NCBI GenBank assembly: GCA_032718475.1 | Contig: JAUCBJ010007486.1 | Coordinates: 72,244 to 136,243, forward strand | DNA: 64,000 bases | Reading direction: 5' to 3' | Origin: Nemertoderma westbladi | Lineage: Eukaryota; Animalia; Xenacoelomorpha | In this document: positions 20,939-47,769 of the stretch, piece by piece | How positions within the stretch are numbered: the stretch's first letter is position 1 | How the letters are laid out: each line of letters begins with the position of its first letter | Program-made: the position numbers and the translations under genes | The notes under the pieces: model-generated | The model's input: only the letters and a program-made list of their open reading frames with translations | Databases searched by the model: none | Told to the model about the DNA's origin: nothing

Positions 20939-22171
20939 TCACGTTTTGTGTACATGTGGTTTAGGAAGTTTATTTGACTTTAACACATCGATTTGAATGT
21001 CATTCAACCGCATGTAGAGAGCTTCAGGTTCTTCCATAAACATATGATACAATTGCTCACCCATGGCCTCTCTCACCGCGGAATCCACCAATGGGAAAGT
21101 CCGCGCGATATGCTCCAAAGTCATACTCGCCTGCCGCTGACTGTCTGCGTGACGCACATTGGCCATAGCGACCATGAGTCCATGACAGCAACCCAGTTGA
21201 ACTAAGGTCTCGGTGAGGTCACCCTCGTCCAATTGGGCCAATATCCCTATTGTCTTACAGGCGGTGGCTTGTTGGACATGGTAGGGCAGTGGGGTTGATA
21301 GAATCTCTTTTTTGTCTTCATCATGAAAAATCATAGGTCTGTTTGTTTTATCTTCCTTTGGAGGAACCAATAACCCTACTAATCCCCCAAGCAACGGCAT
21401 TTTAACCTCCACGTAATCCATAAGCAGTTTGATAAGTTCTATAGCCTCGAATTGAACCTCTAAGTGCAATGTTCTGAGCAGATTGAGCACTGGTTCCACC
21501 AGGTTTGGGTGGGCGTGCTTCACAATGGGTTGTACGATGCGGAGCGTCTGAGCGGACAACTGTTGGGCACGGTAGGAGTTGCTAGGTAACAATGCGATGA
21601 GACCTTTATAGACTTGTATCTCGTACTTAGGGTTTCCCTGCGCTAACTCCTGAAGCAGTTGGCGGCAGTGTTGCTGAGTATTCAAAGTTTCCACTCGAGC
21701 AAGACACTCGGCAACAGCGCGGATACCGTAACTCTCGCATATCAATTCTTTGTACTTCCGTCCAGCCTGCGCTACAGTCAGCAACAACTTCAACGCTTCG
21801 GTTTTATCCGCGTCTTTGATTTGTTTCAACCCGAGAATCTCCAGTGACGTCATCACCCCTCCGACCTCCAGGAACTCGGCGAGGAAGCGGTGTCCGCTCG
21901 CTGCGTTCAGATAGATCCCGATCGCTTTGAGCTGCGGCCCCAGACAGGTGCCCACCATGTAGGTGAGTCGCAACCACGCAGTGAGTCTCGCTAGGAATAG
22001 ACTGGCCGCTTGAGCCATCTCCACCTCGAGTTCAGGGCCAGTTTTACCAGCGTTGACTCTGATGAAATCGGATAGGATTTGCGCTCTCACACTGGTACCG
22101 GCTCCCCTGTCCCATTCGGCTAACATGTCCATAACTTGAGTTATTGCCGTTTTAGCCTTACCTGACGCCAT
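20939..22171 (-). CDS. ARMH1: Armadillo-like helical domain-containing protein 1 (C1orf228 orthologue), single coding exon, 410 aa
   Basis: Protein matches recalled ARMH1 motifs along its length (EWD, GKTxPELE, ASLFLARLT, FLEVGGV, YKELICESYG, GNPKY..QVYKGLIALLP, LHLEVQFEAIELIK, SQRQASMTLE, FPLV). ATG at 22171 (MASGKAK) matches the expected N-terminus. Confidence 0.93.
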   Translation of the reverse strand: MASGKAKTAITQVMDMLAEWDRGAGTSVRAQILSDFIRVNAGKTGPELEVEMAQAASLFLARLTAWLRLTYMVGTCLGPQLKAIGIYLNAASGHRFLAEFLEVGGVMTSLEILGLKQIKDADKTEALKLLLTVAQAGRKYKELICESYGIRAVAECLARVETLNTQQHCRQLLQELAQGNPKYEIQVYKGLIALLPSNSYRAQQLSAQTLRIVQPIVKHAHPNLVEPVLNLLRTLHLEVQFEAIELIKLLMDYVEVKMPLLGGLVGLLVPPKEDKTNRPMIFHDEDKKEILSTPLPYHVQQATACKTIGILAQLDEGDLTETLVQLGCCHGLMVAMANVRHADSQRQASMTLEHIARTFPLVDSAVREAMGEQLYHMFMEEPEALYMRLNDIQIDVLKSNKLPKPHVHKT

Positions 22172-24099: not shown

Positions 24100-24210
24100 A
24101 AAGTAAAATAATGTAAAATCAATGCAAAAAAATTTAAAATCAATGTAAAATAATGTAAAATCAATGTTAAATAATGTAAAATCAATGTTAAATAATGTAA
24201 AATAATGTTC
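24100..24210. repeat. 10-11-bp AT-rich microrepeat (AATGTAAAAT(C))n
   Basis: About ten direct copies visible. Confidence 0.8.
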
Positions 24211-24286
24211 CATCTTCTGATATACAACTCACGAGTTATATACGGCCAGAGGCCTGTGATTGGTTAGTTTGGGTATAAATAGTAGT

Positions 24287-25514
24287 TGTAAAAGCCTTTG
24301 CTGAATTGCCCCGTTATTTTTATTATCTTTTACATTAAAATACTCTGTAGTTGATTTAATAAGTGTAAGAGACCGTATTATTGCTGTATCGGTGTTTTTA
24401 GAGGATCTAAGACCTATTTCCTCCGTATGTGTACTGTGAAAGGCATATTTTGTGATTCTATGGCAATTCGTGACGCAAAGGGGTGATAGCTACTCTTGAA
24501 CAGTAGTTACTATGACTACGGTTAACAGCTGACATTCATACGTGTTGATTTCCTTTGTTCTACGGCGTCTCTCAGTTCAGTCAGCCAATGAGAGCGTTTT
24601 TGTGGCTCCTTGTACAGAAAATTTCCGAGAAATGACGCAATGCCTATGTGCAGTGTTTACATTCAGTCTTGAGCCAAAGAAAGAACGGCTTGGAAGTATT
24701 TTGTGCTGTACTGCTTTTTAGTCGTACACTAGTAGGTTTAATTATAAAGGGCATATATCCTTTAACTGATGACTGCTGACTGATCATACATGCTGACTGC
24801 TGAAACATTGCAAACTCATAACAATCAGTGTTTTCATTGTTGTTTTATACTGCTATTTACCGTCAGTTCTTCATAATATGGTTGATGAATAATTATATTT
24901 GGAATAACGATAAACAACCCCTAAACCCAATATTCTTGATATACTGAAGGTAAGAGAGAAGGGTTACAAATAAACGATTGTGACTTATGTTAAAGTGGTT
25001 TGAAGTGAATCTAATGTTATTTGATAGACCCTACATGATTCAGTCTGTGTTCCTTTTATATGTGACTAAAATCAGTGAAGATTGGCAGATTAGTGTGCAG
25101 TATTGTGCAGCATTGTGTATGAGTGAGTCTGTTAAAGAAGCAATTCCTAAAGAATGCGCCATATATGTGAATTATAATTAAGCCATATCGTTGTGAGTAG
25201 TTTAAGTCATAACTCTGTTTATATAGATAAAGCGCCACGTCCTAAAGGAACTGTTAATATTACCGAAGGTGAATAATATTGTCAGAGATTATATAATACT
25301 GTCAGTCGAATAATACATTAGGCTTACATAGCAATAAAAATTAAACCGTCGAACCCAATCTCCCGGGAATATCCAGCGGGTGAATGGTCGCGCACGGATT
25401 GGTTTCGACTAGTGTAGTGAATCAAATACTTGTCATAGACTAAAAAGCGATTTATTATCTAGAAGACATTCTAATTTGGCGGGTTAAACTGCCAAAGGTC
25501 TGAAAGCGCGAACA
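24287..25514 (+). repeat. 5' LTR of BEL-A (1228 bp)
   Basis: Begins TGTAAAAGCCTTTG and ends GCGCGAACA, homologous to the termini of the TSD-defined BEL-B LTRs. Confidence 0.85.
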
Positions 25515-25525
25515 TTAAAGGATAT
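25515..25525 (+). promoter_or_regulatory. Non-tRNA primer-binding site of BEL-A, complementary to its own LTR
   Basis: TTAAAGGATAT abuts the LTR end; its exact reverse complement ATATCCTTTAA lies at 24755-24765. No TGG follows the LTR. Confidence 0.75.
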
Positions 25526-25796
25526 CGCTTCTTTATTGCAGTAAGCAATAAAGTCGAAAGTATCGGTCGACCGGTAACCAGTAGGCCTGACTGCCTGATC
25601 ATCCGGACCGGTACCTACTTCCGTATAAGTACAGCAGTATTATTCGATTTGATTATATATGCCGGTAGGTCTTAATAATTAATCGGGGACGCCTGGTTTT
25701 TATTGGGATTTTACTTAGGCCTATTTCTGTCAGTTTTATTTGTTTGTAGGCCAGTATTGAACAGAAGGCGTGTAAACCTGATCAGATTGTACAGAC

Positions 25797-26365
25797 AATT
25801 TGTAGGCTGAGCTGTTGTCTGATTGCTGTTAAGTCCGAACGAATTGCAGTGTGTGTAGAGCACTTGTCCGATTAAGTACGGTTAGGAAGTAGGGGCAGCA
25901 ACGCTGTAAGGTAAACCCCCAACTAAAGAATAAGTCGCACTACTGGGTTAGAGCGCATACTCCCTAATCATTTCGGAGTCTGCATGTCCTGTGGTTTATT
26001 TAGGCTTGAGAGTAGTCTGCCATCGTTTAGTCTGTACTTTGTTTGTGTCAGTCTGTACGGGTAGCGTATAATTTTATTTAAATAATTTGTAGGCTGGATA
26101 GTTGTCTGGCTGTTATTAAGTCTGAACGGATTGCTGCGTGTGTAGATCATCTGTCCGATTAAGTACGATTAGGCAGTAGGGGCAGCGAAGCTGTAAGGTA
26201 AACCCCCGACTAAAGAATATGTCGCACTACTGGGTTAGAGCGCATACTCCCTAATCATTTCGGAGTCTGCATATAACGTAGTTTGTTTAGGCTTGATAGT
26301 AGTCTGTCAGTGTTCGGTCTGTATTTTGTTTGAGTAGTTTGTACGCGTAGCGTAATATTTATTAT
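25797..26365 (+). repeat. ~287-bp tandem duplication in the BEL-A leader
   Basis: The unit starting AATTTGTAGGCTG occurs at ~25797 and ~26084; BEL-B has one copy (~40886-41170). Confidence 0.85.
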
Positions 26366-27683
26366 TCAGAGTTTATGCGATTATTCGCAACATTCAAGTC
26401 CCTAAGTTTGTTCCTACAGTAATTGTGTTTGTTATACATACCGTTATAGTTAAATTAACCTCGGTACTACACGGGCTGCTCGGCGTAGGTAAAGACTGGT
26501 GATTTTGTGCATCGGTCACTCCAGCAGATGCCGTGGTTCTTTTAGCTGTTCAAGTATATTTAATTACTGATTATCTGTTATACAAGTACTCGTACCTAAT
26601 TTAGGGTTTAGTGTACGGTACTTTCCGAAGTAATTATTGTAGGCATTATATTTGTGTTGTAAAGTGGTTGATAGGCACATTCGATTAGCTCTATTAACTT
26701 CTAGGTAGGAACACTCCGTGATACATAACGTAGAACCTATAGCGATACGGCTATAGGTCGTCAGGCGGTGGTATTTTCCTATCTAGACAACGCAGTGTAT
26801 TTACTACTACTTATTATTTCAAATACCGTAGTACCCTGTCCGCTGTAATAATCAGTTTTCTAACCCTTTGTTAGGCTGGTTTGTAGACTTCTTGTAAAAT
26901 TACCCTAAAAATTCGTATTTGTGTTTTGTAAAATTTTGTGTTTAGTTAGAGATTGTAATCTCAACCCAAATTGTACGTAATTTGTAGTATTAAGTAACTT
27001 AGGTAAATTAGTATTATTTGTTTTAGTGTCCTGTACGTAACACTTCACTGAAAGCGCACCGCTTTGTGTAGTGATTACTCCCCAGAAATAATAACATTTA
27101 TTTCAAACATTGACAAAACCCACTAAAACGGGTATATATATATTATAAATCAAATCTAACGATTTATAAATAGTAGGCCTACCATACAACCATTAGGTCT
27201 CAATATCAGTTGGATTACTGCTCAAATAACGGTAATAAAGTAAGTTAAGTAACCAAGTAACCCTAAAATACAGAAATTCAATTATTTAAAATAATTGATA
27301 TGCCGGTATTTACGATAGGCCTATTATCTTTATTTCTATAAATTTAGGCTGAAATTATACCGGTACTTGTAATTAATTCTATTTCAGAATTATATATCCT
27401 ACAAACTGTAAGCTGTATACCGGTATTCCGATAGGCCTATTATATATTTATATATATTTGTGCTAAAATTATACCGGCATTCTGTGATAAACCTAGTCTG
27501 TAATAATACTTATATAGTTATATATACTATAAGTATACCGGTATTCTAATATATTATATATATATCACGCTACACTGAGTAGCAGTAACGGTAATTAATT
27601 ACTAGGCTAGCAGTTCATACTGAGTTACTAGACTTGCTTAGACTGTAATATAGCAGTAGGCATTCAACTGTACATACCTAGTC

Positions 27684-30600
27684 ATGTCTGATACTAAGCA
27701 GAACCTGTCAGACAGTTTATTAGATGTAACTATCTGCGACTCAGATAGAGACGTACAACCGTCTGGTCGTAAATCCAGTTCACCTCCCACTGTGAGGAAA
27801 GTCATCCCTCCAGTAGTAATAACAGAACCTAGGCTGGTCCAACATCGTAGGTCTATCATAGGCACCCGAGCTCAGGTCAAGCGGGACCAACAAGCGGCGG
27901 AACAGCAACAACCCGCTAGTCAAGAACTTATTCCTCAACGGCCCAGCAGCTCCAGTAGTGAGGATACTGTAGAGCTGACACCCGAGAGCGGAGCAGAGAT
28001 GACGGATGCGGTTTATACGGATCCCCTTCTCATCCTTCCTGCAGCCGTGCTCGCTGGGTTATTGATCGCGGTGGAAGAACACCAGATCGATTGGGCAAGG
28101 AGTCAACGGACAACTAGAGATAGCTACGCGGGCTACACTAGTGAAGAACTGAAGTCTATTGTCGAGTCGCAATGGAACTTCCCCGGACCCGGACTCCCGT
28201 TTGATTTATCAGAAGCTGCCTGGGAAGACATACACCGGATGGGAGTAGCCAAGGAAACCATCGATCCAGCTGTGTGGAAGAGGTCCGCAGCCGGATACGC
28301 ACAGGGATTCTTCAGCTCTATGGAGCGAATAGAAAAGCAACTTTTTCAACAACCTCCAGGACCTCAAGAGCAGGGATCGCTGCTTTATCAAGTTAGAGAA
28401 AGAGTTCTGCGGATTAGGCTAATATTATCGGCCTTTGAGGAGGCTTCTAAACGAAGACAAGACACGTCGTTGCAAGTCGCCGTCAAGACTTGGTTTCAAA
28501 GGGTGAGTCGCCAGGTTCAAGGAGCAGCTCAGTGGAAAGCTCAATTGGAGGAGCGCTCAACCCATGGAGAATCAACGGACGCTATTTCTTCCCAAGTGGA
28601 AAGTGAAGCGACGGCAGAGAAACCGCATAAGAAGGATGCCATTGATATCTATCTGTCAGACTATCAGCGTTTTGTGGGAGATAAAGAGTTGAGGAGAAGG
28701 CTAGAGGGACTTAGCCCTAATAGCGAAGGAGCCAAACTTGTGTTAGATGCGATTGATGTGGATAGGTTAGCGGCGAACCAAGCTAAATTCGATGAACAAC
28801 TCCGCATCGCTAGAGAAAGGGAAGAACAAGTAAGGAAAAAACGTATAGAAGACAGAAAGGCCGCAGCAAAAGCAGAGGCAGAGGCAAAAGCGGCAGCAGC
28901 AGAAGCAGCGGCAGAAGCAAAAGCGGCAGTAGCAAAGGCAGAGGCAGAGGCAAAAGCAGCAGAAGCAGCGGCAGAAGCAAAAGCGGCAGTAGCAAAGGCA
29001 GAGGCAGAGGTAAAAGCGGCAGCGGCAGAGGCAAAAGCGGCAGCAGCAGAAGCAGAACGGAGAGCGGCTGAAGAGATCGCCCAACTGGAGTTGGAAACGC
29101 TTCAAGAGAAGCAAGACGACTTCAGTAAACAGTTAACAGCTAGTAATATGCAGATGATGAATCGATCTACTCCCAAAAGACAGGGATATACATCATCTGA
29201 AGAAGGCGATACCACCGATACTGAAGGCAAAGGAAATAGATCTCGTCAAAGCAGACGTAAAAGAACATTCCACCGGCAGAAATTGCCTGATTTGCCTCCA
29301 GCTGTTAGAAGGCAACTAAATAACACCAAAGTAGGTAGTACAGAGCCCGCAGACCAAATAATTAAAATAGAAAGACTCCCTACTATAGTAGATGAGCCTG
29401 AAATAATTAGGCCTGTTCTTGAAATCACCCCTTCGGTGATAGACACACCTGTGCTCCCTGAAGCTACTTCTAAATTCCCTCTACATAGCACTAAGCTACC
29501 TGTGCCCAGTAGAACTGCCCAGGCGACAGTTCAGGTCCTGGACCCCGAGCGAAATATTCCGGATTTGTCGCCCGTTGTCCCTCGTCCGCCCGCTACAACG
29601 TTGGCGACTCCCGCTTCGGCGGTCGAATGGGTGGACGAGAGACGACGGGGGATGGATCTCCTGCTCGGGCAGATGCAGGAGACTGTCCAACAATTCAAGG
29701 GCACAGTAAGGGAAAGTAGGTTAGAGTTGCAAGAAGTGCAGCAAAGTATCGCGCTTGAACGCGATAAATTAGTAAACACCCAAAAGGGTATACCACCACC
29801 CTCTGTAACAATGTGTCAACCTGTTAGGTCTGAAGTATCGCATGCGCAAGGTGTGGAGCCTACACGCATTTATACTGCTAGCGAAGTAGAAACTCCTATA
29901 GTGAACCCTATTAAGGGTAATTATAGACCTGTTGATAATGATATTCCCTATAGAACTGATCATAATCCGAGAAATTTATATACCGATAACTCGATATTAA
30001 ATAGCACGATGGCCCAAGAAAGTTTTACGCGTCAAATGGCTAGAACCGAAGCCCGGCAAGCGGTAAAGGTTGGAGAGATCGTCAAGTTCAATGGAGATGA
30101 GATGAAATGGTTACCTTTTAATGAATATTACAAAGATAACATACAGAACTCTGTACTATCTAATGGAGAAAAACTTAGATACCTCATCGAGTGCTTGGAA
30201 GGATCTCCCAAGTCAATGGCGTTAAAATTTATTGGACATCCAGATGGATTAAGACAAGTTTGGGATACACTAAACATCAGGTATGGTAATAGGACTAACA
30301 TAGCTAGGTATTTATATGCGAAATTAATGGCGCCCCGAAAGTTTCTTAGCAGCGGGATTATAGAGTTTTCCGATGAGATTCAGGAGATCTGTAGACAACT
30401 AGATTGGTTAGGTAAGTCTCATGAATACCAGAATTCTATGGTTGTAGGAGCCTTAGCATCTACTTTGCCCAAGGGTGGAGTAGGTACACGCTGGGATAAG
30501 AAGGTGTTATATATGATGGAACAACAACGACGAGACCCTACCATGACTGATCTCATGTCATTCTTAGATAGAGAAGTGAAATTGCAGCTCCTAAGGCAGT

Positions 30601-33600
30601 CCAGAGAGAAGACATTGGAAAACAAGGTAAGTGAGAAACCCGTTTCTAAGAGAAGGGTAACACCAGTATGTTATACCGACGACAGTGAAAGCCAAACTTC
30701 TCAAGGAGAGGACAGCGGGAAAGACACTGACAGATCTTATTATGTCAAAAAAATGCCTAAAGATCAGGTAAGTAAATCCGAGTCTCGACCCAATGACAGA
30801 AGGGAACCGGTACAAAAAACCCTTCCTACGTCTCCTAAAAGAATTCAGGTGAGAAAACCCGAAGAAAAGGCAAGTGTACACAATGTGACTCAGAATAAGG
30901 TAAGTAACATCAAGCCGAAATGTGTGCTGTGCTACGGGCCCCACCGTTTAAATGTGTGTGATAAATTCCTGAGGAAATCACTTGAGGATAGACGTGAAGT
31001 CATGTGGGATAAGCGGTTGTGTTATAATTGCCTCAGACGAGGACACCAACGGCGAACCTGTAACTCCGACGCAAGGTGTGCAAAGTGTGGTGCGAAACAT
31101 CATATCTTGTTGCACGCTGAATTCGATCGAAATGGTCCGAATCAGGTAAGTGATTCCGAGCTACATGTCCAATTCAGTGATGTGAACGACACTGATCAAT
31201 CTGAGATGGAAGGATTCTATACAGATGAGTTCTCTGACGAAAACGAATCCTGTTACATGATAAATACCGCAGTGTATCGAGCGCTAACATATGAGAAAGA
31301 TACAGAGAACGACTTTACTCTAACTGCTTCTGAACGACAACCACCTTGGAAAGAGACATCCTCCAATGTAGGGATCCGAGAGTTTCCTGTGGTACAGGTA
31401 AGGGTTCACGGACCTAAGAGGAGTTATGTAGTGAACGCCCTCCTGGACTCCGGCAGCACAGGAACATTTATCGATAAAGAGTTAGCCGAAGATATATTTG
31501 CTGGACAACCCAAGTTCCAAACTAAGCTCAACATGTCAGGCATTATGCAAGTTTGGAAATCTACAATAACAGCTGATTATTATGTCGGAGCGTTGTCCAC
31601 ACCCCAGGACGAACTAGGAGAACACAGCATAAGGTTAGTGAAAATGGTGGCTATAAAGAACTTCGCTACTACTCAAGCAGACCTTTATAATTGGGACGAG
31701 GATGAGAGCATCCAACATCTTAACATACCTCGATTTCAGACTGATTATCCTGGAGTGCAAATACTCATCGGCCAAAATGCGCATGAGGCGCTGGAGACAT
31801 TAGAGAAACGGCCTGCTCAACCGCAGCCACTACAGACCTATGCGGTAAGAACTAGAGTAGGTTGGTACTTTACTGGCCCTTCCCGTAGAACACTCAGAGA
31901 AAGACTACCGCAAGAGAGCGTATGCCAGGTGAGTGAATGGGAAGATGATACCAGTGAGGGAGACAACTCAACTGAGGGAATTCCATACTCCTCAGATAAC
32001 GACGATGTTCACCAGCTTTTTGATGAGGAGAATACCATCGATCTCCTTAAGGAAAACGAGGCTTGGCAAAATCAAGTTAACTTATGTCAACTTCTCTATC
32101 CATCTGAACGAGAAGCTTATAACGACGAGTTAAATGACGTCATTGAGCGTCATAATGCCAAGATTCGGGATGAACATGCTGTACGATTCTTTACGCAAGA
32201 GGCGGTAGAGCCCAATTCCTACGATAAAGCCTTGTCGGTGGAAGAGGAAAGGGCCAAGCAGATCCAAGAGACAACTACGTGTTTCCTCAAAGATCAAGGT
32301 AGGTATGAAGTCGGTTTACCTTTCCGCAAGAAAGAACCGAAGTTCATCAATAACAGACCTTTGGCGGAAAAAAGGATCGCGCAACTCCATCGACGCCTTA
32401 CGGCTAATTCATCAGCTAAAGCGATGTATCAAACACAGCTGGAAAAATTCATTAATAAGGGATATGCGGAGAGAGTACCGGAAGAAACACCTGTGACTGA
32501 AAGAACGTATTATTTAACTCACCATTACGTTCCGAAACCCGGTAAACCACACGAAGTGAGAGTAGTGTTTGATGGCTCCGCTCTTTACATGGGTCAATCC
32601 CTTAACTCTGAATTGTTACCCGGACCCAACTTACTTCAATCTTTGTTGGGAATTCTTTTAAGATTGAGACAATATTCGATTGCTTTCGCCTCCGATATAG
32701 AAGGCATGTTCTTGCAAGTCAAAGTGTTGGATAGGGATCGAGATAGCTTACGATTTCTATGGTGGCCCGAAGGAGACCTCAACCAGAAACCGGTGGAGTA
32801 CTGGATGACCATCCAGGCCTTTGGGATAATCTCAAGCCCTTCCAACGCCTGTTCGGTCGTGCGTACTACTGCAGAGGACAATCGAGAGGCATTCTCTAAG
32901 GAAGTAATCGACAACATCAAGAAAGACATCTACATGGACGACAATCTGAAGTCCCTCCCATCAGTTGAAGAAGCCATTGAGGTCGCTAAGGGAACGGTAG
33001 AGTGCTTAAAAAGAGGTGGTTTTCGATTAACAAAATTCACCAGCAACTCCCGTGAGTTTCTGGAGTCGATTCCTGCGGAAGAACGCGGAGCGAAAGATCT
33101 CGATTTGATCAAAGATGATCTGCCAGAAACCAAGACACTCGGCTTGAAATGGGACACAGAGAGAGATATCCTGTTTTTCCAACTAAAACAGCGAGATAAT
33201 CCAGTTCGAACCAAACGGATTTGCTTAAGTATACTGAGCACCTATTTCGATCCATTGGGATTTATTAGCCCAGTTATATTGATTGCTCGAAGTTTGGTAC
33301 AACAAATGTGGCTTGAAAACCACTCATGGGACGATCCACTTAAAGGGGAATTACTGAAGCAGTGGATGAAATGGGAAGATTCTCTACCGGCGATAGAGGA
33401 GTTTATAATTTCCCGTTCATATTTTGGTCATGTTCTCCCTACGTATTCCTATCAACTCCATGTGTTTGGAGACGCCAGCGATATGGGAATCGGTATAGTA
33501 GCCTACCTAAGAGTGGAAACTCCGGATGGAATCAAAGTCGCCTTGGTTACTTCTAAGGCATTAATCAACAACAAGTTGAAAGTTCCTCGAGCGGAGTTGA

Positions 33601-33911
33601 AAGCGGCTCTATACGCTACAGCCATCGGCCGGAATGTAACCGAACAGATTGACTATACATTAGAGAAAACTGTATATTGGACCGACGCTTTACTCGTGTT
33701 AGAGTACATAACCAATGAAGTCTGTCAGTTCAGCGTCTTCGTTACCAACAGAGTAGCCATCATACTTAGTCGCACGACGATGGACCAATGGAGACATTGC
33801 CCCGGAACGATTAATCCAGCGGACATCGCGTCCCGAGGAGCGACTCCAAAGGAATTGGTAAATACTCCCGAATGGTTAGGTGGACCCGATTTCGTTACTA
33901 GAATCCGGTAG
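27684..33911 (+). CDS. BEL/Pao Gag-PR-RT-RNase H polyprotein, 2075 aa, truncated before integrase
   Basis: Gag core (KFNGDEMKW...KLRYLIECLEG), three BEL-type Zn knuckles (CVLC..H..C, CYNC....H....C, CAKC...HH..LH), protease ALLDSGS, RT (RVVFDGS, GPNLL, DIEGMFLQV, YMDD), RNase H (FGDAS, PRAEL, WTDA, NPADIASRG). Confidence 0.95.
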   Translation: MSDTKQNLSDSLLDVTICDSDRDVQPSGRKSSSPPTVRKVIPPVVITEPRLVQHRRSIIGTRAQVKRDQQAAEQQQPASQELIPQRPSSSSSEDTVELTPESGAEMTDAVYTDPLLILPAAVLAGLLIAVEEHQIDWARSQRTTRDSYAGYTSEELKSIVESQWNFPGPGLPFDLSEAAWEDIHRMGVAKETIDPAVWKRSAAGYAQGFFSSMERIEKQLFQQPPGPQEQGSLLYQVRERVLRIRLILSAFEEASKRRQDTSLQVAVKTWFQRVSRQVQGAAQWKAQLEERSTHGESTDAISSQVESEATAEKPHKKDAIDIYLSDYQRFVGDKELRRRLEGLSPNSEGAKLVLDAIDVDRLAANQAKFDEQLRIAREREEQVRKKRIEDRKAAAKAEAEAKAAAAEAAAEAKAAVAKAEAEAKAAEAAAEAKAAVAKAEAEVKAAAAEAKAAAAEAERRAAEEIAQLELETLQEKQDDFSKQLTASNMQMMNRSTPKRQGYTSSEEGDTTDTEGKGNRSRQSRRKRTFHRQKLPDLPPAVRRQLNNTKVGSTEPADQIIKIERLPTIVDEPEIIRPVLEITPSVIDTPVLPEATSKFPLHSTKLPVPSRTAQATVQVLDPERNIPDLSPVVPRPPATTLATPASAVEWVDERRRGMDLLLGQMQETVQQFKGTVRESRLELQEVQQSIALERDKLVNTQKGIPPPSVTMCQPVRSEVSHAQGVEPTRIYTASEVETPIVNPIKGNYRPVDNDIPYRTDHNPRNLYTDNSILNSTMAQESFTRQMARTEARQAVKVGEIVKFNGDEMKWLPFNEYYKDNIQNSVLSNGEKLRYLIECLEGSPKSMALKFIGHPDGLRQVWDTLNIRYGNRTNIARYLYAKLMAPRKFLSSGIIEFSDEIQEICRQLDWLGKSHEYQNSMVVGALASTLPKGGVGTRWDKKVLYMMEQQRRDPTMTDLMSFLDREVKLQLLRQSREKTLENKVSEKPVSKRRVTPVCYTDDSESQTSQGEDSGKDTDRSYYVKKMPKDQVSKSESRPNDRREPVQKTLPTSPKRIQVRKPEEKASVHNVTQNKVSNIKPKCVLCYGPHRLNVCDKFLRKSLEDRREVMWDKRLCYNCLRRGHQRRTCNSDARCAKCGAKHHILLHAEFDRNGPNQVSDSELHVQFSDVNDTDQSEMEGFYTDEFSDENESCYMINTAVYRALTYEKDTENDFTLTASERQPPWKETSSNVGIREFPVVQVRVHGPKRSYVVNALLDSGSTGTFIDKELAEDIFAGQPKFQTKLNMSGIMQVWKSTITADYYVGALSTPQDELGEHSIRLVKMVAIKNFATTQADLYNWDEDESIQHLNIPRFQTDYPGVQILIGQNAHEALETLEKRPAQPQPLQTYAVRTRVGWYFTGPSRRTLRERLPQESVCQVSEWEDDTSEGDNSTEGIPYSSDNDDVHQLFDEENTIDLLKENEAWQNQVNLCQLLYPSEREAYNDELNDVIERHNAKIRDEHAVRFFTQEAVEPNSYDKALSVEEERAKQIQETTTCFLKDQGRYEVGLPFRKKEPKFINNRPLAEKRIAQLHRRLTANSSAKAMYQTQLEKFINKGYAERVPEETPVTERTYYLTHHYVPKPGKPHEVRVVFDGSALYMGQSLNSELLPGPNLLQSLLGILLRLRQYSIAFASDIEGMFLQVKVLDRDRDSLRFLWWPEGDLNQKPVEYWMTIQAFGIISSPSNACSVVRTTAEDNREAFSKEVIDNIKKDIYMDDNLKSLPSVEEAIEVAKGTVECLKRGGFRLTKFTSNSREFLESIPAEERGAKDLDLIKDDLPETKTLGLKWDTERDILFFQLKQRDNPVRTKRICLSILSTYFDPLGFISPVILIARSLVQQMWLENHSWDDPLKGELLKQWMKWEDSLPAIEEFIISRSYFGHVLPTYSYQLHVFGDASDMGIGIVAYLRVETPDGIKVALVTSKALINNKLKVPRAELKAALYATAIGRNVTEQIDYTLEKTVYWTDALLVLEYITNEVCQFSVFVTNRVAIILSRTTMDQWRHCPGTINPADIASRGATPKELVNTPEWLGGPDFVTRIR

Positions 33912-33946
33912 GCGGTATACTACTGGACTTATCTGCATGTGGACAT

Positions 33947-34245
33947 AAAAGTAAAGTAAAGTAAAGTAAAGTAAATTTTCTTCGGCCACTAGGCCAGGGA
34001 TTACGCACAAAGAATTACGCATCTGACGACTTATTTCCAGTGCGGTCCCCCCAGAACTTTACTCCCCAGAGGAAACTCTAGTACTCATTTAGCTACCACT
34101 TAACGATGCAAGGCAGAGATGCGCCCTGGCTGGTCCCTTTAAAGCATTCGTGCCGAAACGAAAACTGCCCTGGTCCATGTGAGGATCGAACCCACGACCT
34201 ACAGGAGATGTGAATTCAATGCAACCACTACACCAAGGTGGAACC
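33947..34245 (-). mobile_element. tRNA-derived SINE (~300 bp) with (TTTAC)n tail
   Basis: Minus strand: A box TGGTGTAGTGG, B box GGTTCGATCC, body containing AAATGAGTAC. The tail appears on the + strand as (GTAAA)5 at 33951-33975. Confidence 0.75.
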
Positions 34246-34634
34246 CTTGGTTAATAAGCCCGTTAATAAGCCACAGTCCGTATCTTGAAATAGCAAAAGG
34301 CAGTGATTTTTTATGTCAATTTATTTGACTTTTTTTGTCACTTTTTTTTACGAATTATGCATAATGACTTTTGTTGTCCATTTAATGACTTTTATTGTCA
34401 CTTTTTATGTATGTATTTCTTCAAACTGTCAGACTGCTGATTTCTGGACTGTCAGACAGTTGATTTCACTATGCCTGTGCCAAAACATTCCATGATTCCA
34501 TGATTTATAGACTATGAGATAGATTTCCATATGCGCCTGTGGTAAAAAGACTCTATATTTAATAGTTTGTGGTTGTTGTCGATAATCGATTACCACATGA
34601 CGTAGCAAAACACTCATTTTATAGCCAAAAACAA

Positions 34635-35212
34635 TTACCAATTGATGGAAAGGAGCAGGTTAAGGTCGAGTTTTCTAACCAAAACAATAAACAATCACTT
34701 TACCAAATCAGGGAAAGGAGCAGGTTACAGAGACGGGATTTTCTAACCAAAACAATAAACGATCATTTAACTAATTGAGGGAAAGGAGCAGGTTACAGAG
34801 ACGGGATTTTCTAACCAAAACAATAAACGATAACATTACCAATTGAGAGAAAGGAGCAGGTTACAGAGGCGGGATTTTCTAACCAAAACAATAAACGATA
34901 ACATTACCAATTGAGGGAAAGAGCAGGTTACAGAGGCGGGATTTCCTAACCAAAACAATAAACGATCACTTAAACTAATTGAGGGAAAGGAGCAGGTTAC
35001 AGAGGCGGGATTTTCTAACCAAAACAATAAACAGTCACTTTACCAAATCAGGGAAAGGAGCAGGTTACAGAGACGGGATTTTCTAACCAAAACAATAAAC
35101 GATCATTTAACTAATTGAGGGAAAGGAGCAGGTTACAGAGACGGGATTTTCTAACCAAAACAATAAACGATCATTTAACTAATTGAGGGAAAGGGGCAGG
35201 TTACAGAGGCGG
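34635..35212. repeat. 68-bp minisatellite, ~9 copies
   Basis: Unit AATTGAGGGAAAGGAGCAGGTTACAGAG(A/G)CGGGATTTTCTAACCAAAACAATAAACGATCATTTAACT. Confidence 0.95.
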
Positions 35213-36719
35213 GCCTTCTGTGCTGTTGGAAGTAGTGGAGCCGCTATCCGTAACACTACTCAGACAGTAGTCATGATCCATTATTGATTATAAAACTAAT
35301 ACAGTAAGGCCTAAATTATGTGAAAGGTATATCCACATTTTCCACAATCCTGCAATCCAGTTTCGCCTATCAATTATTTAAAATTTATTAGCACAACCGG
35401 TAGGCCTACCATTACCGTATTTAAATGGTAGGCTACACAGTAGGCCTATAGCAGTACCAGTGCCGGTACCGGTACTAAAATACAGAAATACCTGCTTTAT
35501 ACCTACATCTGTACATACAATACAGCAAAATACTGCTATATATATACTAACCGGTACTGATAGCCTGAGAGAACAGCAGTAGAGAAACCGGTAGCATGGA
35601 ACCTAACATTAGACTTTTGGATGACATAAAAAATCAAAAAAAATTGACAAAAAAAGGATAAAAATGGACAATAAAAATTATTGCGATAGCAAAATAGCAG
35701 AAAGAAGCCAATGAGATTATTACATATCAACAAACCAGTTATGAACCAGGTAAATGCTGTCCTACTAAATAGAACCAAAAAGAACCAATAAAACCGATAG
35801 AACCATTAACATTTTGAGCTAAATTTTGTGAAATTAGCTCGATTTCCAAGTGGAGGTTAGCTATAAATGGATGCTGCGGTTTTTTGATATTAACTTTTTG
35901 AAATTTGCTGATGTGAATGTAAATATATACACAACAATTTAGGCCACATTAAATAATTCACTGTAATTGTATACTTTTGTATATTTTAGGTGGTGAAATA
36001 AAACACTGCAAGCTTTTTTCACTAAATATCAACTTAATAGGAAGTGAATTAATTAAACTGGTTAAATAATTGTAATGTAAAATACTACTGTATTATTTTG
36101 CATCACATGCAGTTATAATAATATGAACAATATAACTCTGGTACTGTAGCATTACATGGTAAATTAACATAGACGCTATTGATTCAAACTTCTCTAGCTT
36201 TGCTATTCAGAATGACAAATATTGATTTTATTTCTCCTACTGTACTACACAGCACTTCATTCACTGAATGAATAAGAATTTAATAGTTTGTTGTCCTTGC
36301 TATATAGTGTAGAAATTCCTAATGGGAATGAGTCATCACTTTTTAATTTTAATTAGAGCTACGAACAGAAGTTTGTGAGGTCGAGAAAATTTGATGGGCG
36401 ATGCTACATTACGTACTGCTGTTTAGTAGATAAGTGGTGTTAATTAATCTTTTATTTTACCTACAAGTTTTACAGTTTATTAAATTATTAATATTATGAG
36501 TGTTATTTATTAATTGATACAGCTAATCAAGTCAACTTGATCTGTCAGCCTGTAAGCAGTAGGTAGTATAGCAGTACTGCAGTATAGCACCTTTGATATT
36601 GCCGACAGCCAGACTGCTTGGCGCCAAAATGAGGAGGCTACCATTACGGCGTTTGACATTGCTGACAACCCGGAACGTTTGTGGTTTGTGGACACTGCTA
36701 GCGATCAACCAGCACAGGG

Positions 36720-39411
36720 ATGCCCTCATGTTGCGGATGCGGTATTAACGGCACTTGCAAGCGCGGTGCGTGGTGCCCCTGCGTGAGGCCAGCCCGAGAA
36801 TGCTGGGACTGCATTCCCAGCAAGCGAAGACGGTGCCTGAACGGCGGAGTCAGTCCGCCGACAACCCAGACTCAACCCACCCCGATCATTGATGGACAAC
36901 AAGACGGGCCGGCAGCCGCCGCCTCCTTCTGAGTTGGGGAGGGGGGACGACTCTCTTGACGATACATTGTTGGACCTGTCTGACAGCGATTGTTCTTTTC
37001 ACTCGCTGAGTGACACGTTGGTGACACGCCGCTCCCCATACCATGTCAGTATGTTGGTCCCGGCGGTCGGTTTGTCTGTCCCCCCGGGTCCACCCATCGG
37101 TCTGTTTGCCCCCACTGGTCCGCCAGTCAGTTTGTCTGTCCCCACGGGTCCGCCTGTCGGTTTGTCTGTCCCCACGGGTCTGCCTGTCGGTTTGTCTGTC
37201 CCCACGGGTCCGGCGGTCGGTTTGTCTGTCCCACGGGTCCGCCTGTCGGTTTGTCTGTCCCCACAGGTCCGCCTGTCGGATTGTCTGTCCCCACGTGTCC
37301 GCCTATCGGCTTGTCTGTACCCACGGGTCCATCTGTCGGTTTGCAAACCGTGGGACAGCCGCAAGTTACTACGGATGGAACTGTGTTCGGCAACCAGTGG
37401 AGCACGGGTGGGGAGCCAAAGGAACACCGACCCTCATGACCTAATGACGAGGGCATATGGGGCCCCACTGGTAGGGAAGGGGGCCGCGCCGGATTGCCTG
37501 CTCCATCAGTGGAGACAGGCGACTCATCTTTGCGGTTCCAAATACAGACTACCAGGGGGTGCAGTGGGCTGTGACGTAGTTGCGACGCTGGCGGAGGAGG
37601 CGATGGCCTTTGTGTCTGGGTTGCGCCACAACATAGCCAACGCGCGTTCGGAGAGGATTGTACTTTTGGACGCATTGCTCTTCCACCGCAACCCAAAAGT
37701 TGTAAAGGCCGCGGATATCCAGCGCCTTCTGAGCCGCAGATTACAGATGTGGAATGCCGGGATTATGGAGGCCTTACTCCAGGAGGCGGAGTGCTGCTCC
37801 CTCAAGTTCAGGTCAGGGCGGCATGCGAGAAGCAAGCCGGCTGGTGAGGACAAGGATCACACGATCCGAGTTTTTACTCATCTGATGTTAGAAGGGAAGG
37901 TACGCAGCGCTGTATGCTGGGTGACTGGTCGGGAGAGCGGCGGTTTGTTAGACCCTGACCAGGAAGTCGACACAGGAGGTGGAAATGTTAAAGTCCTCAA
38001 TATCCTGAGAGCCAAGCATCCCCCTACCCCGACACCCCCCCCAGAATCTCTCCTCCAACCAGATGAAGAACTCCCAATCCACATCCAATCACAGCTAACG
38101 CCTCCGTGACGCCATCGCCGATATTGCGCAGTCCTTTGCCATCACTGTTATACTGTGGGAGTCCGCACGTGCCCTTATGTCGTGTCGGCTGATTGCCCTG
38201 GATAAATGCCCAGGAGTTCGGCCGATCGGGATTGGGGAGTGCTTGCGTCGAATTCTTGGTCGCTCAATGGCTGAAGCTACGGGGGATGACATTATGGCAA
38301 CCTGCGGCGCCGAATAGCTCTCCGCCGGCACATCAGCAGGGGTGGAGGCCGCTGTCCACACGATGGCAAATCTGTTCAACCAACGGAGTTTAACTCTCTA
38401 AACCAGACAGCCGCGCTGTGGAATGTGCGTCGGCTGTGGCCCCGATGCTCGCTGTTTCTGTTTAATAGTTACCGGGGGGATGGCATACTAACAATACGCG
38501 GGACCGAGGAGGTGATATTCAGTGAGGAGGGATCCATGCAGGGTGATCCTCTCGCGATGCTCGAGTATTCTTCAGGGATTCTCCCCCTCATTCACCTCCT
38601 GCGTAAACCACCGGATACTCAACTGGTTCAGAACTGGTATGCGGATAACTCAGGGGCGGGAGGTAGACTGGAGTTGGTTCTCGAATGGTTCATCAAGCTG
38701 CAGCGGTTTGGACCAACACTCAGGATACTTCCCGGAGCCAATGAAATGCTACCTCATAGTAGCCCCAGAGTTTGTCGAGGATGCCCGTAGAGTGTTTGCT
38801 GGCCAATCGATAAATATTGTGTCGGGTCATCGATTCCTCGGTGGGTACATATGCGGCGCTGTAGAGAGGAGGGGCCATGTCCGGGCTGAGGTAGCTGGGT
38901 GGGTTGCCTCTGTTGATCGTCTAGCTGAGATGGCAGAGGCCCAGCCCCAAGCCGCATTTGCAGCTATGGCCTGCTCCCTCCAGCGGGAGTGGGCCTATTT
39001 ACAACGGGTAACCCCGGACTGTGGTGAGGAATACGAGGTGCTGGAGGAGGCGATAACCGAACGGTTTCTCCCGGCAATCTTAGGAAGTGAGATATCCTCC
39101 CAAGAGTGAAAACTATTCGGTCTGTCCCCCCACAACGCTGGGCTCGGGCTGTAAAATCCGGTGTCCGAGGCCGCCCAGTCCTTCTCGGTTTCATAGAAGG
39201 GGACCGCTTCCCTTGCGGCAGCCATTCTTGGTAAGAGTTCACTCGTACACTCGGAGCATCTGGACTGTCTGAAGCGCGTGTGGAAAGAGGGTCGGGAACA
39301 GCAGATGTTGCGGGAGAAAGTCAACCTCGAATCCACGCTAGAGGAGTTAACGGACCGTCGCAGTTGGACAGTACGGCGTGTCGCCGATTTCCGCTCGAGC
39401 GGGTGTATTTC
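36720..39411 (+). mobile_element. Decayed CRE-like non-LTR retrotransposon, 5' part (Cys-rich N-terminus + RT)
   Basis: N-terminal CCGC...C..C.C...C..C cluster. RT motifs lie across frames (LIALDKCPGVRPIGIGECLRR, GVEAAVH, EGSMQGDPLAM, WYADN, GYFPEP.KC, GHRFLGG) with several stops, frameshifts and deletions. Clade call is from motif recognition. Confidence 0.85.
37055..37345. repeat. 30-bp minisatellite inside the CRE-like ORF (PTGPPVGLSV repeats)
   Basis: Unit CCCACGGGTCCGCCTGTCGGTTTGTCTGTC, about 9-10 copies; one 29-bp copy shifts the frame. Confidence 0.9.
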
Positions 39412-40599
39412 TGTAAAGGCTTTTGCGGATTTAGCTGGTTATTTTCCCCGCAAAGTACTCTGTAGGTGTTTTAGCGGACATAAAAAGCCGTTTCCTTACT
39501 GTACAGGTGTTTTAGTGGACATAAAAAGCCATTTCTTCTGTATGTGTACTTTAGCGGACATAACAAGCAATTTTATGCCGCAATGCACCAAAATACTCTT
39601 AATACAGTGTAGTTCAGATGACGACATCTATCAGCTGATATCTGATATGTCGACATGTAGCTTTTGGCTTTCTTTGTTCAGGCTCATTCACTCGACCAAT
39701 CAGAGCGATTTTCATTTTATTTGCACAGAGGCCTCCGGGAAATCGCGCAATGCATTATGGTCTTTGTTTACCTTTTTTCCTGAGCCCCGAACATCGGCTG
39801 TGGAATTATTCTATGTTTCAGACTTTAGCCAAACATTAGAACGGCTTTGATCATAGAAACGTATAACTGTTATTCTATCTACCACTTATCATATCATAAC
39901 TATATGTACCTTTCACCGCATTATTTTGCTGCTATTTACTGTCGGTTATTAATTGTATCAGTTGATGGAATATTGTTATATTTGGAGAATATCGATAAAT
40001 AATCAGAAACCCCCAATCTTCTTGATATACTGAAGGTTAGAGAGACCGGTTACATATAGCAATTGCGACTTACATTATAGTGGTTTTGGAGTGAATTGAA
40101 TGCTATTTCATAGAACCTACATGTGTCAGTTGCTGTTCTCCTTATATATGATTAAAATTAGTGAAGGTCGGCAGATCAGTGTGCAGCAGTGGGCGGTAGT
40201 GTGCATGAGTGTGATAGATAACAAAGCATCTCCTAAAGAATGCGCTTTATACGTGAATCAATAGCCATCCCGTTGTGTTTAGTGTAAGTCATAACTCTGT
40301 TTACATACTTAGAGCACCACGTCCTAAAGGAACTGTTAATATTTCCCGAAAGTGAATAATATTTGTCAGAGATTATATATTAATGATCAATCGAGTAATA
40401 CAGTAGGCCTATACCGCAATAAGGTCAGAGCATCCGAATCCAGTCTCCCTTAACCGTGGGTGAATGGTCGCGCATAGGCTGGCTTCGCCTAATGTAGCTT
40501 TATGTGTATCAAATACTTGTTATAGGCTAAAGTCGATTTATAACCTAGAAGACACCTAAATTGGCAGGTTAAACTGCTAAAGATCTAAAAGCGCGAACA
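39412..40599 (+). repeat. 5' LTR of BEL-B (1188 bp)
   Basis: Direct repeat of 60935-62128; by eye about 20 substitutions plus one 6-bp indel. Confidence 0.96.
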
Positions 40600-40610
40600 A
40601 TAACAGTTAT
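40600..40610 (+). promoter_or_regulatory. Non-tRNA primer-binding site of BEL-B, complementary to its own LTR
   Basis: ATAACAGTTAT abuts the LTR end; its exact reverse complement ATAACTGTTAT lies at 39863-39873 (and 61386-61396 in the 3' LTR). No TGG follows the LTR. Confidence 0.75.
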
Positions 40611-42532
40611 TGCTTCTTTATTGCAACGTAGGCAATAAAGGTAAAAGTACCAGTCGACCGGTAACCAGTAGGCCTAACTACCTAACCACCCGAACCGGAA
40701 CTTACAGCAGTACAGGTACAGCAGTATTATTCGATTTTGATAATTATATACCGGTAGGTCTTGATATTTAATCAGGGACGGCCACCCTGGTCTTTTATTG
40801 GGATTTTACTTATTTCTGTCAGTTTTATTTATTTGTAAGTTAATATTGAGCAGAAGGCGTGTAAGCCTGCTCAGATTGTACAGATAATTTGTAGGCTGGA
40901 CTGTTGTCTGGCTATTGTTAGGTCTGAAGAGATTGCAGTGTGTGTAGAGTGTATGTCCGATAAAGTACTAGTTAGGAACGTAGGGGCATCCAGTGCTGTA
41001 AGATAAATCCCCCCAGAAAGAATAAGTCGTACTACTCGGTTAGAACGCATACTAACTAACCATTTCGGAGTCTGCATATACTGTAGTTTATTTAGGCTTG
41101 ATAGTAGTCTGCCAGCGTTTGGTCTGTATTTTGTTTGTGTAGTCTGTACGGGTAGCGTAATATTTATTATTCAGAGTTTATGCGATTATTTGCAACATTC
41201 ACAACCCCAAGTTTATTCCTACAGTAATTGTGCTTGTTATACATACCGTTATAGTTAAATTAACCCCAGTACTACATCAGGGCTGTTTGGCGTAGGTAAA
41301 GACTGGTGATTTTATGCTCTGGTCACTCCGGCAGATACCGTGGTTCTTTTAGCTGTACAAGTATTTTTAACTGCTGGTTATTTGTTGTATAAGTACTTGT
41401 ACCTAATTTAGGGTTTAGTGTACAGTGCTTTCCGAAAGTAATTAGTTTGTAGGCAGTATATTTGTGTTGTAAAGTGGTTAATAGGCACGTTAGCCATAGT
41501 AGGCTGCGGTACTTAACTTCTAGGTAGAAACACTCCGGGTACATAACGTAGTACTTATAGCGCTACGGCTATAAGTCGTCAGACGGTGGTATTTTTCCTA
41601 TCTAGACAACGCAATATATTTACTACTGCTTTATTATTTTCAAGTACCGTAGTATCCTGTCCGTTTGTAATTCCAGATATTCCAGAATCCAGATATTCTA
41701 ACCCCTTGTTAGGCTGGTTTGTAGATTTCTTGTAAAATTAACCCTAAAAATTCGTACGTGTAATTTTTGTGTTTATTTAGAGATTGTAATCTCACCCGCA
41801 ATTGTACATAATTTGTAGTAATAAGTAACTTAGGCAAGTAGAATTATTTGTTTTAGTGTCCAAAACAATAGGTAGCACTCCACTGAGAGCGTACAGCTTC
41901 TGTGTAGTGACTCCTTCCCAGAAATAATAACATTTATTTCCAATATTGTAACAAAACCCATTAAAAGGGTATATATATATATATATTATAAATCAACTCA
42001 AACCGATTTATAAAATAGTAGGCCTGTCATACAACAATTAGGTCTTAATATCAGTTGGACTACTGCTTAAATAACGGTAATAAAGTAAAGTAAAGTAACT
42101 AAGTAACCCTAAAAATTCAGAAATTCAATTATTCTAAAATAATTGACATACCGGTATTTGCGATAGGCTTATTATATTTATTTCTATAAATTTGAGCTGA
42201 AATTATATACCGGTATTCTGTAATTAATTCTAGTCTATAATTATACTTATATACTATAAGTGTAAGTTGTATACTGGTATTCACGATAGGCTTATTATAT
42301 ATTTATATATACATGCGCTGAAATTATATACCGGTATTCTGTGACAAACCTAGTCTGTAATAATACTTATATATACTATAAGTGTATACCGGTACACTAA
42401 TATATTGTATATATATCACGTTACATAGAGTAACGATATCGGTAATTAATTACTAGGCTAACAGTTGATACTGAATTACTAGACTTGCTTCAACTGTAAT
42501 ATAGCAGTAGGCATTCAACTGTACAAACAAAC

Positions 42533-45500
42533 ATGTCTGACACAATGCAAAACCTGTCAGACAGTCTCCTAGATACAACCATCTATGACCCAGATAGGAG
42601 TGCTGAACGTTTGAGACCGAAGTTCAACTCACCTCCTACTGTAAGAAAAGTCATCCTTCCAGTAATAGTATCAGACCCTAGGCTAGTCAAACACCGTAGG
42701 TCTATCATAGGCACTCGGGCTCAAGTCAAGAGGGACCAAGAAGCAGCTGTTAAACAGCAGCAACACGCGAGCCGAGAACTTATTTCTCAGCGGCCCGATA
42801 GCTCCAGTAGTTCAGATACTGTAGAGCTGACACCCGAGCGCGGAGCAAAGATGGCAGATGCGGTTTATTCGGACCCCCTTCTCATTCTTCCTGCAGCCGT
42901 ACTCACTAGGTTATTGATTGCGGTGGAAGAACACCAAATCGATTGGGCGAGAAGTAAGCGATCGACCAAGGATAGTTATGTGGGATACACAAGGGAGGAA
43001 CTGAAATCTATTGTCGAGTCGCAATGGAACTTCCCCGGACCCGGACTCCCGTTTAACTTATCGGAAGCTGCCTGGGAAGACTTACACAGGATGGGAGTGA
43101 CAAAGGACACTAGTGATCCAGCTGTATGGAAGAGGTCGGCAGCAGGATATGTACAGAGATTCTTCAGCTCTTTGGAGCGATTTGAGGAACAACTGTTTCA
43201 ACAACTCCAAGGACCTCAAGAGCAGGGAGAGCTGCTTTATCAAGTTCGAGAAAGAATTCTAAGAATCAGACTAATCTTATCGGCCTTTGAGGAAGCTTCG
43301 AAAAGAAGACAAGACACGTCGTTGCAAGTTGCCGTAAAGACTTGGTTCCAGCGGGTGGGTCTCAAGGTTCAAGGAACGGCCCAGTGGAAATCTCAGTTGG
43401 CTGAGCGCCCAACCCATGGAGAATCAACAGACGCTACCTTTTCTCAAGTGGAAAGCGAAGCGACAGCAGAGAAACCGCAGAAGAGGGACGCTATTGACAT
43501 CTATCTGTCATACTATCAACGATTTCTAGGTGATGAAGAGTTGAGGAGACGGCTGGCTGGACTTCGCCCTAATAGTGAAGGAGCCAAGCTTGTGTTGGAC
43601 GCAATAGATGCGGAAATGTTAGCTGCAAACCAAGCTAAATTTGATGAACGCCTCCGCATCGCTAGAGTCCAAGAAGAACAAGTAAAGAAAAAACGTATAG
43701 AAGACAGAAAGACAGCAGCAGCGGCAGCGGCAGCGGCAGAAGTTGAAAGAAAAGCGGCAGCGGCAGCGGCAGCGGCAGCGGCAGCGGCAGCGGCAGCGGC
43801 AGCGGCAGTGGCAGAGGCAGAAGCGGAAAGAAAGGGGGTAGAAGTGGAAAGAAAGGCGGTAGAAGTGGAACGAAAGGCGGTAGAAGTGGAAAGAAAGGCG
43901 GTAGAAGGGGAAAGAAAAGCGGCAGTGGCAGCGGCAGAAGCGAAAAGAAAAGCAGCAGAGGCAGTGGCAGAAGCAGAACGGAGAGCGTCTGAAGAGACCA
44001 CCCAACTAGAGTTGGAAAATCTTCAAGAGAATCAAGACTACATAAATAAACAGTTAACAGCTAGTCAGATGCAGATGATAAGTTGATCTACTCCCAAAAG
44101 GCAGGGATTTACATCATCTGATGAAGGCGATACCACCGATCCTGAAGGCGGAGGAAATAGATCTCGTCTAAACAGGCGTAGAAGAATGCCCCACCATCAG
44201 AAATTGCCTGATTTGCCCCCAGCTGTGAGAAGGCAACTAGCTAGCACGGACTTAGGTAGTACAGAACCCACAGACCAAATTATTAGAGTAAAAAGACTCC
44301 CTACTATAGTAGATGAGCCTGAAATAATTAGGCCTGTTCTCGAAGCCACCCCCTCTGTGATAGAGACCCCTGTACTTCCAGAACCCAACTCTAAATTCCC
44401 TTTGCACAGCACTAAACTACCTGTGCCCAGCAGAACAGCCCCTGAGACAGCTCCTGTCCTGGACTCCGAGCGAAATATCAATGATTTGTCGCCCATTGTC
44501 CCTCGTCCGCCTGCTACTATGTTGGCGGCTCCCGCTTCGGCGGTCGAGTGGGTGGATGAGGGACGGCGGGGGATGGATCTCCTGCTCGGGCAGATGCAGG
44601 AGACTGTTCAACAGTTCAAGGGCACAGTCAGGGAAAGTAGGTTAGAGTTGCAAGAAGTGCAGCAAAGTATCGCGTTAGAACGCGATAAATTGGTAAATAC
44701 CCAAAGGGGTATACCACCAACCCCGGTAACAATGTGTCAACCTGTTAGGTCTGAAGTATTTCATGCGCCAGGTGTGGAGCCTACACGCATCTATACTGCT
44801 AGTGAAGTAGAAACTCCTGTAGTAAACCCTATTAAGGGTAATTATAAACCTGTTGACAATGATATTCCATATAGACCTAATCATAATCCGAGAAATTTAT
44901 ATACCGATAACTCGATATTAAATAACACGATGGCCCAAGAAAGTTTTACACGTCAAATGGCTAGAACCGAAGCCCGTCAAGCAGTAAAGGTGGGAGAGAT
45001 CGTCAAGTTCAATGGAGATGAGATGAAATGGTTACCTTTTAATGAATATTATAAAGATAACATACAGAACTCTGTGCTATCTAACGGAGAGAAACTTAGA
45101 TTCCTCATCGAGTGCTTGGAAGGATCTCCCAAGTTAATGGCGTTAAAGTTTATTGGACATCCAGATGGATTAAGACAAGTTTGGGATACACTAAACATCA
45201 GGTATGGTAATAGGAATAACATAGCTAGGTATTTGTATGCAAAATTGGTAGCGCCCCGAAAGTTCATTATCAGCGGGATTATAGAGTTTTCCGATGAGAT
45301 TCAGGAGATCTGTAGACAATTAGATTGGCTAGGTAAGTCTCATGAATATCAGAGTTCTATGGTTATTGGAGCTGTAGCATCTACTTTACCCAAGGGTGGA
45401 GTAGGTACACGCTGGGATAAGAAAGTGTTATATATGATGGAACAACAACGACGAGACCCTACCATGGCTGATCTTATGTCATTCTTAGATGGCGAAGTAA

Positions 45501-47759: not shown

Positions 47760-47769
47760 TGGCGCCCGA
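47760..47769 (+). promoter_or_regulatory. tRNA primer-binding site of BEL-C (tRNA-Lys-like)
   Basis: TGGCGCCCGA directly after the LTR matches the start of the tRNA-Lys(UUU)-type PBS. Confidence 0.7.

Follow-up and report, generated by a model that had tools for sequence, protein, structure and literature searches.

Likely self-primed reverse transcription in two diverged BEL/Pao retrotransposons of Nemertoderma westbladi

The long terminal repeat (LTR) retrotransposon Tf1 primes reverse transcription with its own transcript, whose first 11 bases pair with the primer-binding site (PBS) before RNase H cuts between bases 11 and 12 (PMC7175516). Two flanking helices contribute to the pretzel structure of the Tf1 RNA (PMC10085805). 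Self-priming is described for the Tf1/sushi group and predicted for Tcn1 and TAR (PMC6317226, PMC4600332, PMC10085805, PMC7175516), and a self-primer is recognized by complementarity of at least 10 bp located 0-5 bp after the LTR (PMC6317226). Whether self-priming in LTR elements is ancestral or has originated repeatedly is a question raised in PMC3601003; all these statements follow the available portions of the papers cited. The International Committee on Taxonomy of Viruses (ICTV) describes the Belpaoviridae as tRNA-primed, with an 18-nt PBS for tRNA-Arg or tRNA-Gly (PMC8742986). Here we analyze a 64-kb stretch of DNA from the xenacoelomorph Nemertoderma westbladi (the window, in which all coordinates are given) that holds three BEL/Pao elements, named A, B, and C (Pfam PF05380, PF03564, PF18701). 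Elements A and B likely prime minus-strand DNA synthesis with their own RNA, in the manner of Tf1.

As in Tf1 and Tf2 of Schizosaccharomyces pombe and in the Tf1/sushi elements, there is no tRNA site in A and B, and an 11-nt PBS beside the 5' LTR is complementary to a site within the LTR (PMC7175516 and PMC10085805, available portions). Unlike the Tf1/sushi elements, which are Ty3/Gypsy chromoviruses, A and B encode BEL/Pao proteins and are not members of that clade. The plant TAR lineage (Houba, Osr-1; Ty1/Copia) and the Tcn1 clade offer a second parallel, since self-priming was predicted there from sequence by the same rule (PMC6317226, available portion): in both A and B the PBS lies 0-5 nt after the LTR and is complementary to the element's own LTR over at least 10 nt. 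In contrast to TAR, A and B belong to another superfamily and another host kingdom. With the Belpaoviridae of the ICTV profile they share LTRs of up to 1.2 kb, a single gag-pol frame, the order protease, reverse transcriptase (RT), RNase H, and integrase, an animal host, and a purine tract (PMC8742986). They depart from that profile in having no tRNA PBS, and B further departs from it in its length of ∼15.7 kb without C and in an extra 3' frame.

The literature searched held no report of a self-primed BEL element; Repbase, GyDB, subscription journals, and supplements lay outside that search and could hold an earlier remark. The BEL surveys PMC554778, PMC3118150, and PMC6238403 yielded nothing on PBS, tRNA, or self-priming in a term search, and no self-primed BEL element appears in the available portions of PMC3601003, PMC13524379, PMC8220671, PMC7472051, PMC5443660, PMC3286476, and PMC6934838.

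The LTRs and the predicted priming sites of A and B are as follows.

24287 to 25514, plus strand: 5' LTR of element A, 1228 bp, TGT...ACA, its ends set by alignment to B
24755 to 24765, plus strand: predicted self-primer of A, exact complement of 25515-25525, at LTR offset 469, occurring once in the window
25515 to 25525, plus strand: non-tRNA PBS of A, directly after the LTR, without TGG, occurring once in the window
39412 to 40599, plus strand: 5' LTR of element B, 1188 bp, one of an LTR pair with target duplication
39863 to 39873, plus strand: predicted self-primer of B, at LTR offset 452, differing from that of A at 4 of 11 positions
40600 to 40610, plus strand: non-tRNA PBS of B, exact complement of 39863-39873, occurring once in the window
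60935 to 62128, plus strand: 3' LTR of element B, preceded by a purine tract, with the same 11-mer at 61386-61396

The original prediction, made from the sequence alone, had identified these four 11-mers as exact complements within each element's own LTR, with zero spacer and at offsets of 469 and 452, and all of this was verified. It also held that neither element has a TGG-type tRNA PBS, and TGG is indeed absent from the first 8 nt after the LTR in both. The tRNA-PBS trait of the Belpaoviridae is lacking; it is a profile trait and not the phylogenetic basis of the family. The third element, proposed as a tRNA-type contrast, serves as one: C has a TGG site, and its best self-match is 5 nt. 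No tRNA genes were found in the window with ARAGORN, and Rfam gave no match in 24200-27700.

The proposed match length of 11 nt is correct for element A as it stands in the window, but the pairing in B reaches 12 bp by using the last A of the LTR, and most A-type family copies pair one base further. At position 25526, where element A has C, public contig runs carry A in 407k of 437k depth (run X1) and 220k of 243k (X3), so that A-type pairing extends to T24754, giving 12 pairs. These runs show a high-copy family. There is no variant inside either 11-mer among the contig variants listed, from which contig-end positions were excluded, so this says nothing on covariation.

The original prediction noted that the two PBSs differ while each matches its own LTR, and the comparison bears this out, as the A PBS against the B LTR and the B PBS against the A LTR leave at least 3 mismatches at any site. 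The LTR sites differ at 4 of 11 positions, and each difference is offset by the opposite change in the PBS (4/4 compensated), an outcome with a probability of ∼1e-5 under independent drift in a simple model. The computed duplex energies are -10.3 and -10.1 kcal/mol for the self pairs and +0.9 and -0.5 kcal/mol for the swapped ones. The sites of A and B lie 6 and 5 nt behind a common block, with flanks identical at 18/20 and 13/14 positions, and are taken as homologous because both follow that block by 5-6 nt; the global A-B alignment has a gap at the primer sites. Exact chance matches are expected at 0.0007-0.004 per LTR for A and 0.001-0.009 for B (Markov orders 0-3), and other internal positions with a match of at least 11 nt number 5/8345 in A and 2/6660 in B. 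The only second copy of the B site 11-mer is the one at 61386, in the 3' LTR of B. For A and B a splice-junction primer was not needed, their best spliced matches being 8 and 10 nt at poor sites.

A similar signature is found in distant BEL elements. Relatives were obtained by a profile scan of metagenome contigs, from which the best 80 of at least 569 confirmed BEL loci were taken (38-44% amino acid identity). A repeat pair suggested the LTR end in 12 loci, two of which were dropped (L059, of the same family as L055, and L029, whose repeat has no CA end), leaving 10; loci without a pair-defined LTR end were excluded from the count. Contiguous and GT-AG-joined matches were scored at offsets of 0-5 under a consensus splice filter. 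Eight of the 10 relatives carry a match of 10-15 nt to their own LTR, which is contiguous in two (L046, L067) and is found only across a GT-AG intron junction in six (L006, L008, L009, L050, L051, L057). None of these eight has TGG in the first 8 nt. When LTRs and PBSs were swapped among 13 elements, 3 of 156 combinations matched; two of the three involve L006 and L009, which have an 11-mer in common. In L078, TGG lies 5 nt after the LTR and the self-match is just 4 nt. Many relatives differ from Tf1 in needing splicing for the match, and a splice-assembled primer is likewise absent from the available portion of the paper on TAR (PMC6317226).

Among 12 further loci with an unclear LTR end, an 11-nt spliced match was seen in L011, L033, L037, and L052, two of which are copies of counted families, and L045/L049 show a 10-nt contiguous match; these loci were not counted because each has 51-84 candidate ends. 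Of 10 self-matching loci examined, 8 have a poly(A)-type hexamer downstream of the site, which would be expected of a site on the 5' side of the repeated region of the LTR (R). No relatives were found among viral contigs. In a quick tree, in which L051 carried the mistaken type label 'none', spliced types occur throughout a 70-row group (SH-aLRT 99) and the contiguous ones fall in one subgroup (92), while L078 lies outside the 70-row group and A sits on a long unresolved branch. What the sequences directly establish is the position of the paired stretch, its complementarity, the homology of the sites, the compensation, the absence of TGG, and the recurrence of the signature in distant relatives.

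Structure prediction on RNA begun at the site places the helix between site and PBS in both the minimum free energy (MFE) and the centroid structures of the two leaders, together with a hairpin.

25531 to 25553 in A and 40616 to 40640 in B, plus strand: predicted hairpin 3' of the PBS, in MFE and centroid folds, common to both elements

When extra 5' nt are added to the RNA, the mean pair probability in A is 0.80-0.95 for up to 6 and 0.22-0.23 for 10-15; in B it is 0.90-0.96 for up to 15. From 20 extra 5' nt on it is at most 0.08 in both elements. These predictions suggest an RNA start near the site, within ∼6-15 nt. Candidates homologous to the flanking helices of the Tf1 pretzel occur in the right order, 183 and ∼130 nt before the LTR end. 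Two differences from Tf1 are the distance between primer and PBS, which is ∼750 nt in A and B, and the three-duplex pretzel, which is unsupported in them. Both elements have CCAAT ∼170 nt upstream of the site. Late in the LTR, the only clear AATAAA of A is at 25333, where B has AATAAG, so the border between R and U5 is not fixed.

Self-priming in A and B would proceed as follows. The RNA is predicted to begin at or within ∼6-15 nt of the site and to fold back over ∼750 nt, so that the site pairs with the PBS. By analogy with Tf1, the RNase H of the element would cleave where the duplex ends on its 3' side, and the 3' OH so released would be extended by RT through U5-R. The primer would then be copied into the new PBS during plus-strand strong-stop synthesis. 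Such copying would keep the PBS in step with the LTR site as the sequences drift. Many relatives would have to splice an intron out of the LTR to make the primer, A and B representing the form without that intron. The evidence leans modestly toward a wider proposal, namely that a large BEL/Pao lineage gave up tRNA priming altogether, that most of its members splice a tiny first exon to the next inside the LTR to make the self-primer, with host splicing acting as a replication switch, and that A and B are intron-free and pair over ∼750 nt. As a speculation, the use of a spliced primer may be that it leaves the unspliced copy in the 3' LTR unable to pair.

Several points weigh against self-priming. 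The transcript start, the RNase H cleavage, and the priming of cDNA are predicted or carried over from Tf1. In neither A nor B does a TATA box lie 25-30 nt upstream of the site, and a TATA motif near -30 occurs in 0/10 relatives examined. A TATAAA at 24743, 12 nt ahead of the site, is found in A alone; its use would place the RNA start downstream of the A primer. Because most A-type copies form 12 pairs, a start exactly at A24755 is not fixed, and we consider it an even question whether the RNA begins on exactly the first paired base. Fold prediction across 750 nt is unreliable and ignores pseudoknots, and the candidate pretzel helices are no more stable than shuffles, 7-31 of 100 of which do as well. 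In the spliced relatives, an RNA begun at the primer would carry just 4-9 nt as its first exon, which is unusual. The offset window was widened from 0-3 to 0-5 after L051 was inspected, L055 reaches 10 nt under a looser splice filter only, and the long unresolved branch of A means that a common origin with the relatives is not established. Of the Tf1-like self-priming first proposed, the core stands, on position, compensation, predicted folding, and distant relatives; the specifics fare less well, given the missing TATA box, the extra paired base, and an RNase H release carried over from Tf1.

Three relatives (L006 at 7363-8014, L009 at 6490-7107, and L033 at 847-1218) have a second acceptor-like site, 0-9 nt ahead of the predicted primer, and the 'first exon' could accordingly be a microexon of 7-13 nt within a longer RNA.

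Compensation proves only that pairing was kept, priming itself being inferred, and the helix, though real, could have a structural role in which it closes the leader (for packaging, dimerization, or translation control) while another primer is used. We judge this unlikely: the absence of support for the Tf1 flanking helices favors it, but the paired stretch has the Tf1 length and lies exactly at the primer-binding position in A, B, and 8/10 relatives, pairing is missing in the two TGG elements (C and L078), and no other PBS is apparent beside the LTR. It is quite unlikely that the PBS instead pairs with the 3' LTR copy of the site, close to the RNA 3' end, and that a cut or trimmed 3' end is the primer, perhaps made by an exonuclease-like protein of the extra frame of B. 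The same 11-mer is present in the B 3' LTR, the start is not fixed by any promoter motif, and the extra frame resembles PF01612-type proteins in language-model features (0.92), one homologue having the same two segments. However, that assignment is below Pfam significance, 8/10 relatives have a poly(A)-type hexamer on the downstream side of the site, and the predicted pairing is all but lost when the RNA also includes upstream LTR sequence.

Some Copia lineages are described as primed by half-tRNAs in the absence of TGG (PMC6317226, available portion), and the PBS might bind a host RNA, either a tRNA half or another small RNA, with the LTR match incidental or secondary. This is very unlikely, as a fixed host primer would keep the PBS constant, whereas A, B, and almost every relative have different PBSs, each tracking its own LTR. 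Chance is effectively excluded, even for AT-rich 11-mers in a 1.2-kb LTR, a near-palindromic B 11-mer, and two elements that are related and hence not independent, by odds of ∼1e-3 per element, the compensation, and the 8/10 relatives against 3/156 swaps.

If A and B are self-primed, they extend self-primed reverse transcription to a third LTR superfamily and contradict the ICTV account of the Belpaoviridae as tRNA-primed. Self-priming would also explain unannotated primer sites in such elements, provide a sequence rule for locating their transcript starts, and may let them escape control by tRNA fragments, while the splice-dependent form in relatives would couple replication to host splicing. 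The finding bears on whether self-priming in LTR elements is ancestral or of repeated origin.

The other parts of the three elements are listed below.

27660 to 33911, plus strand: gag-pol frame of element A (Gag, protease, RT, RNase H), open, 2083 amino acids, ending before integrase
39412 to 62128, plus strand: element B as a whole, with LTR pair and target duplication, ∼15.7 kb without C
42500 to 54898, plus strand: gag-pol of element B, decayed, with stops, a frameshift, C inserted, and pol mostly deleted (open reading frame list, Pfam)
47308 to 54329, plus strand: element C, nested in B, a BEL element with identical 452-bp LTRs and a TGG-type PBS at 47760
56588 to 60856, plus strand: extra 3' reading frame of element B, interrupted by a single in-frame stop, with zinc knuckles and a segment possibly akin to 3'-5' exonucleases

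Both A and B have Gag and Pol sequence of the BEL type. Element A matches PF05380 (E 3e-36) and PF03564 (E 1e-13), and B matches PF03564 and PF18701; PF05380 is present in 120/120 homologues among the matches listed. In A there is a YMDD at 32931 and a set of RNase H-type motifs at 33462-33840, which we take to have the roles that these names imply. The A-B alignment breaks at 54621, and C shares 33% amino acid identity with A in RT-RNase H. Element B has the LTR pair, target duplication, and purine tract of the Belpaoviridae, its LTRs being 97.8% identical and flanked by a 5-bp duplication, ATTTC; A has a 5' LTR only, with no second LTR within the window. The 5' leader of A exceeds 2 kb and contains a tandem duplication of ∼287 bp at 25797-26354 that is not in B.

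The A LTR aligns to both B LTRs with 61% identity before the site and 80% from 24850 on. Its most variable stretch is 24766-24840, right after the A primer site, and one X5 contig and the loose end of one X4 contig diverge from the A sequence at 24766-24767. A reading of these departures as a strand-transfer footprint was not used, as the stretch is the most variable in the LTR. Downstream of the primer site, both LTRs keep a donor-like sequence, GTAAG in A and GTTAG in B, followed ∼80 nt later by an acceptor-like TAG (24950-25029; 40036-40112); this conserved pair may mark an intron in the leader, or the donor may serve a subgenomic RNA.

In the extra frame of B, the second part (residues 290-620) resembles clusters of 3'-5' exonucleases in language-model features (0.92; PF01612 on half of the members). 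Its sole match in a representative library, P0121, has an exonuclease-like segment that is 30% identical, plus a zinc-knuckle segment. Pfam support for an exonuclease is not significant (E 0.2), and a single-sequence structure model has a predicted local distance difference test score (pLDDT) of 30. The exonuclease identity is possible, as a lead only, and has no established link to priming.

Positions 1-18000 of the window, ahead of the elements, hold long satellite arrays of 63-bp and 22-bp units. Between these arrays and element A, an ARMH1 gene (PF17741) lies on the minus strand at 20939-22171, as a single exon of 410 amino acids for which a retrogene origin or intron loss is possible. It is at most 65% identical to any of 120 homologues among the matches listed.

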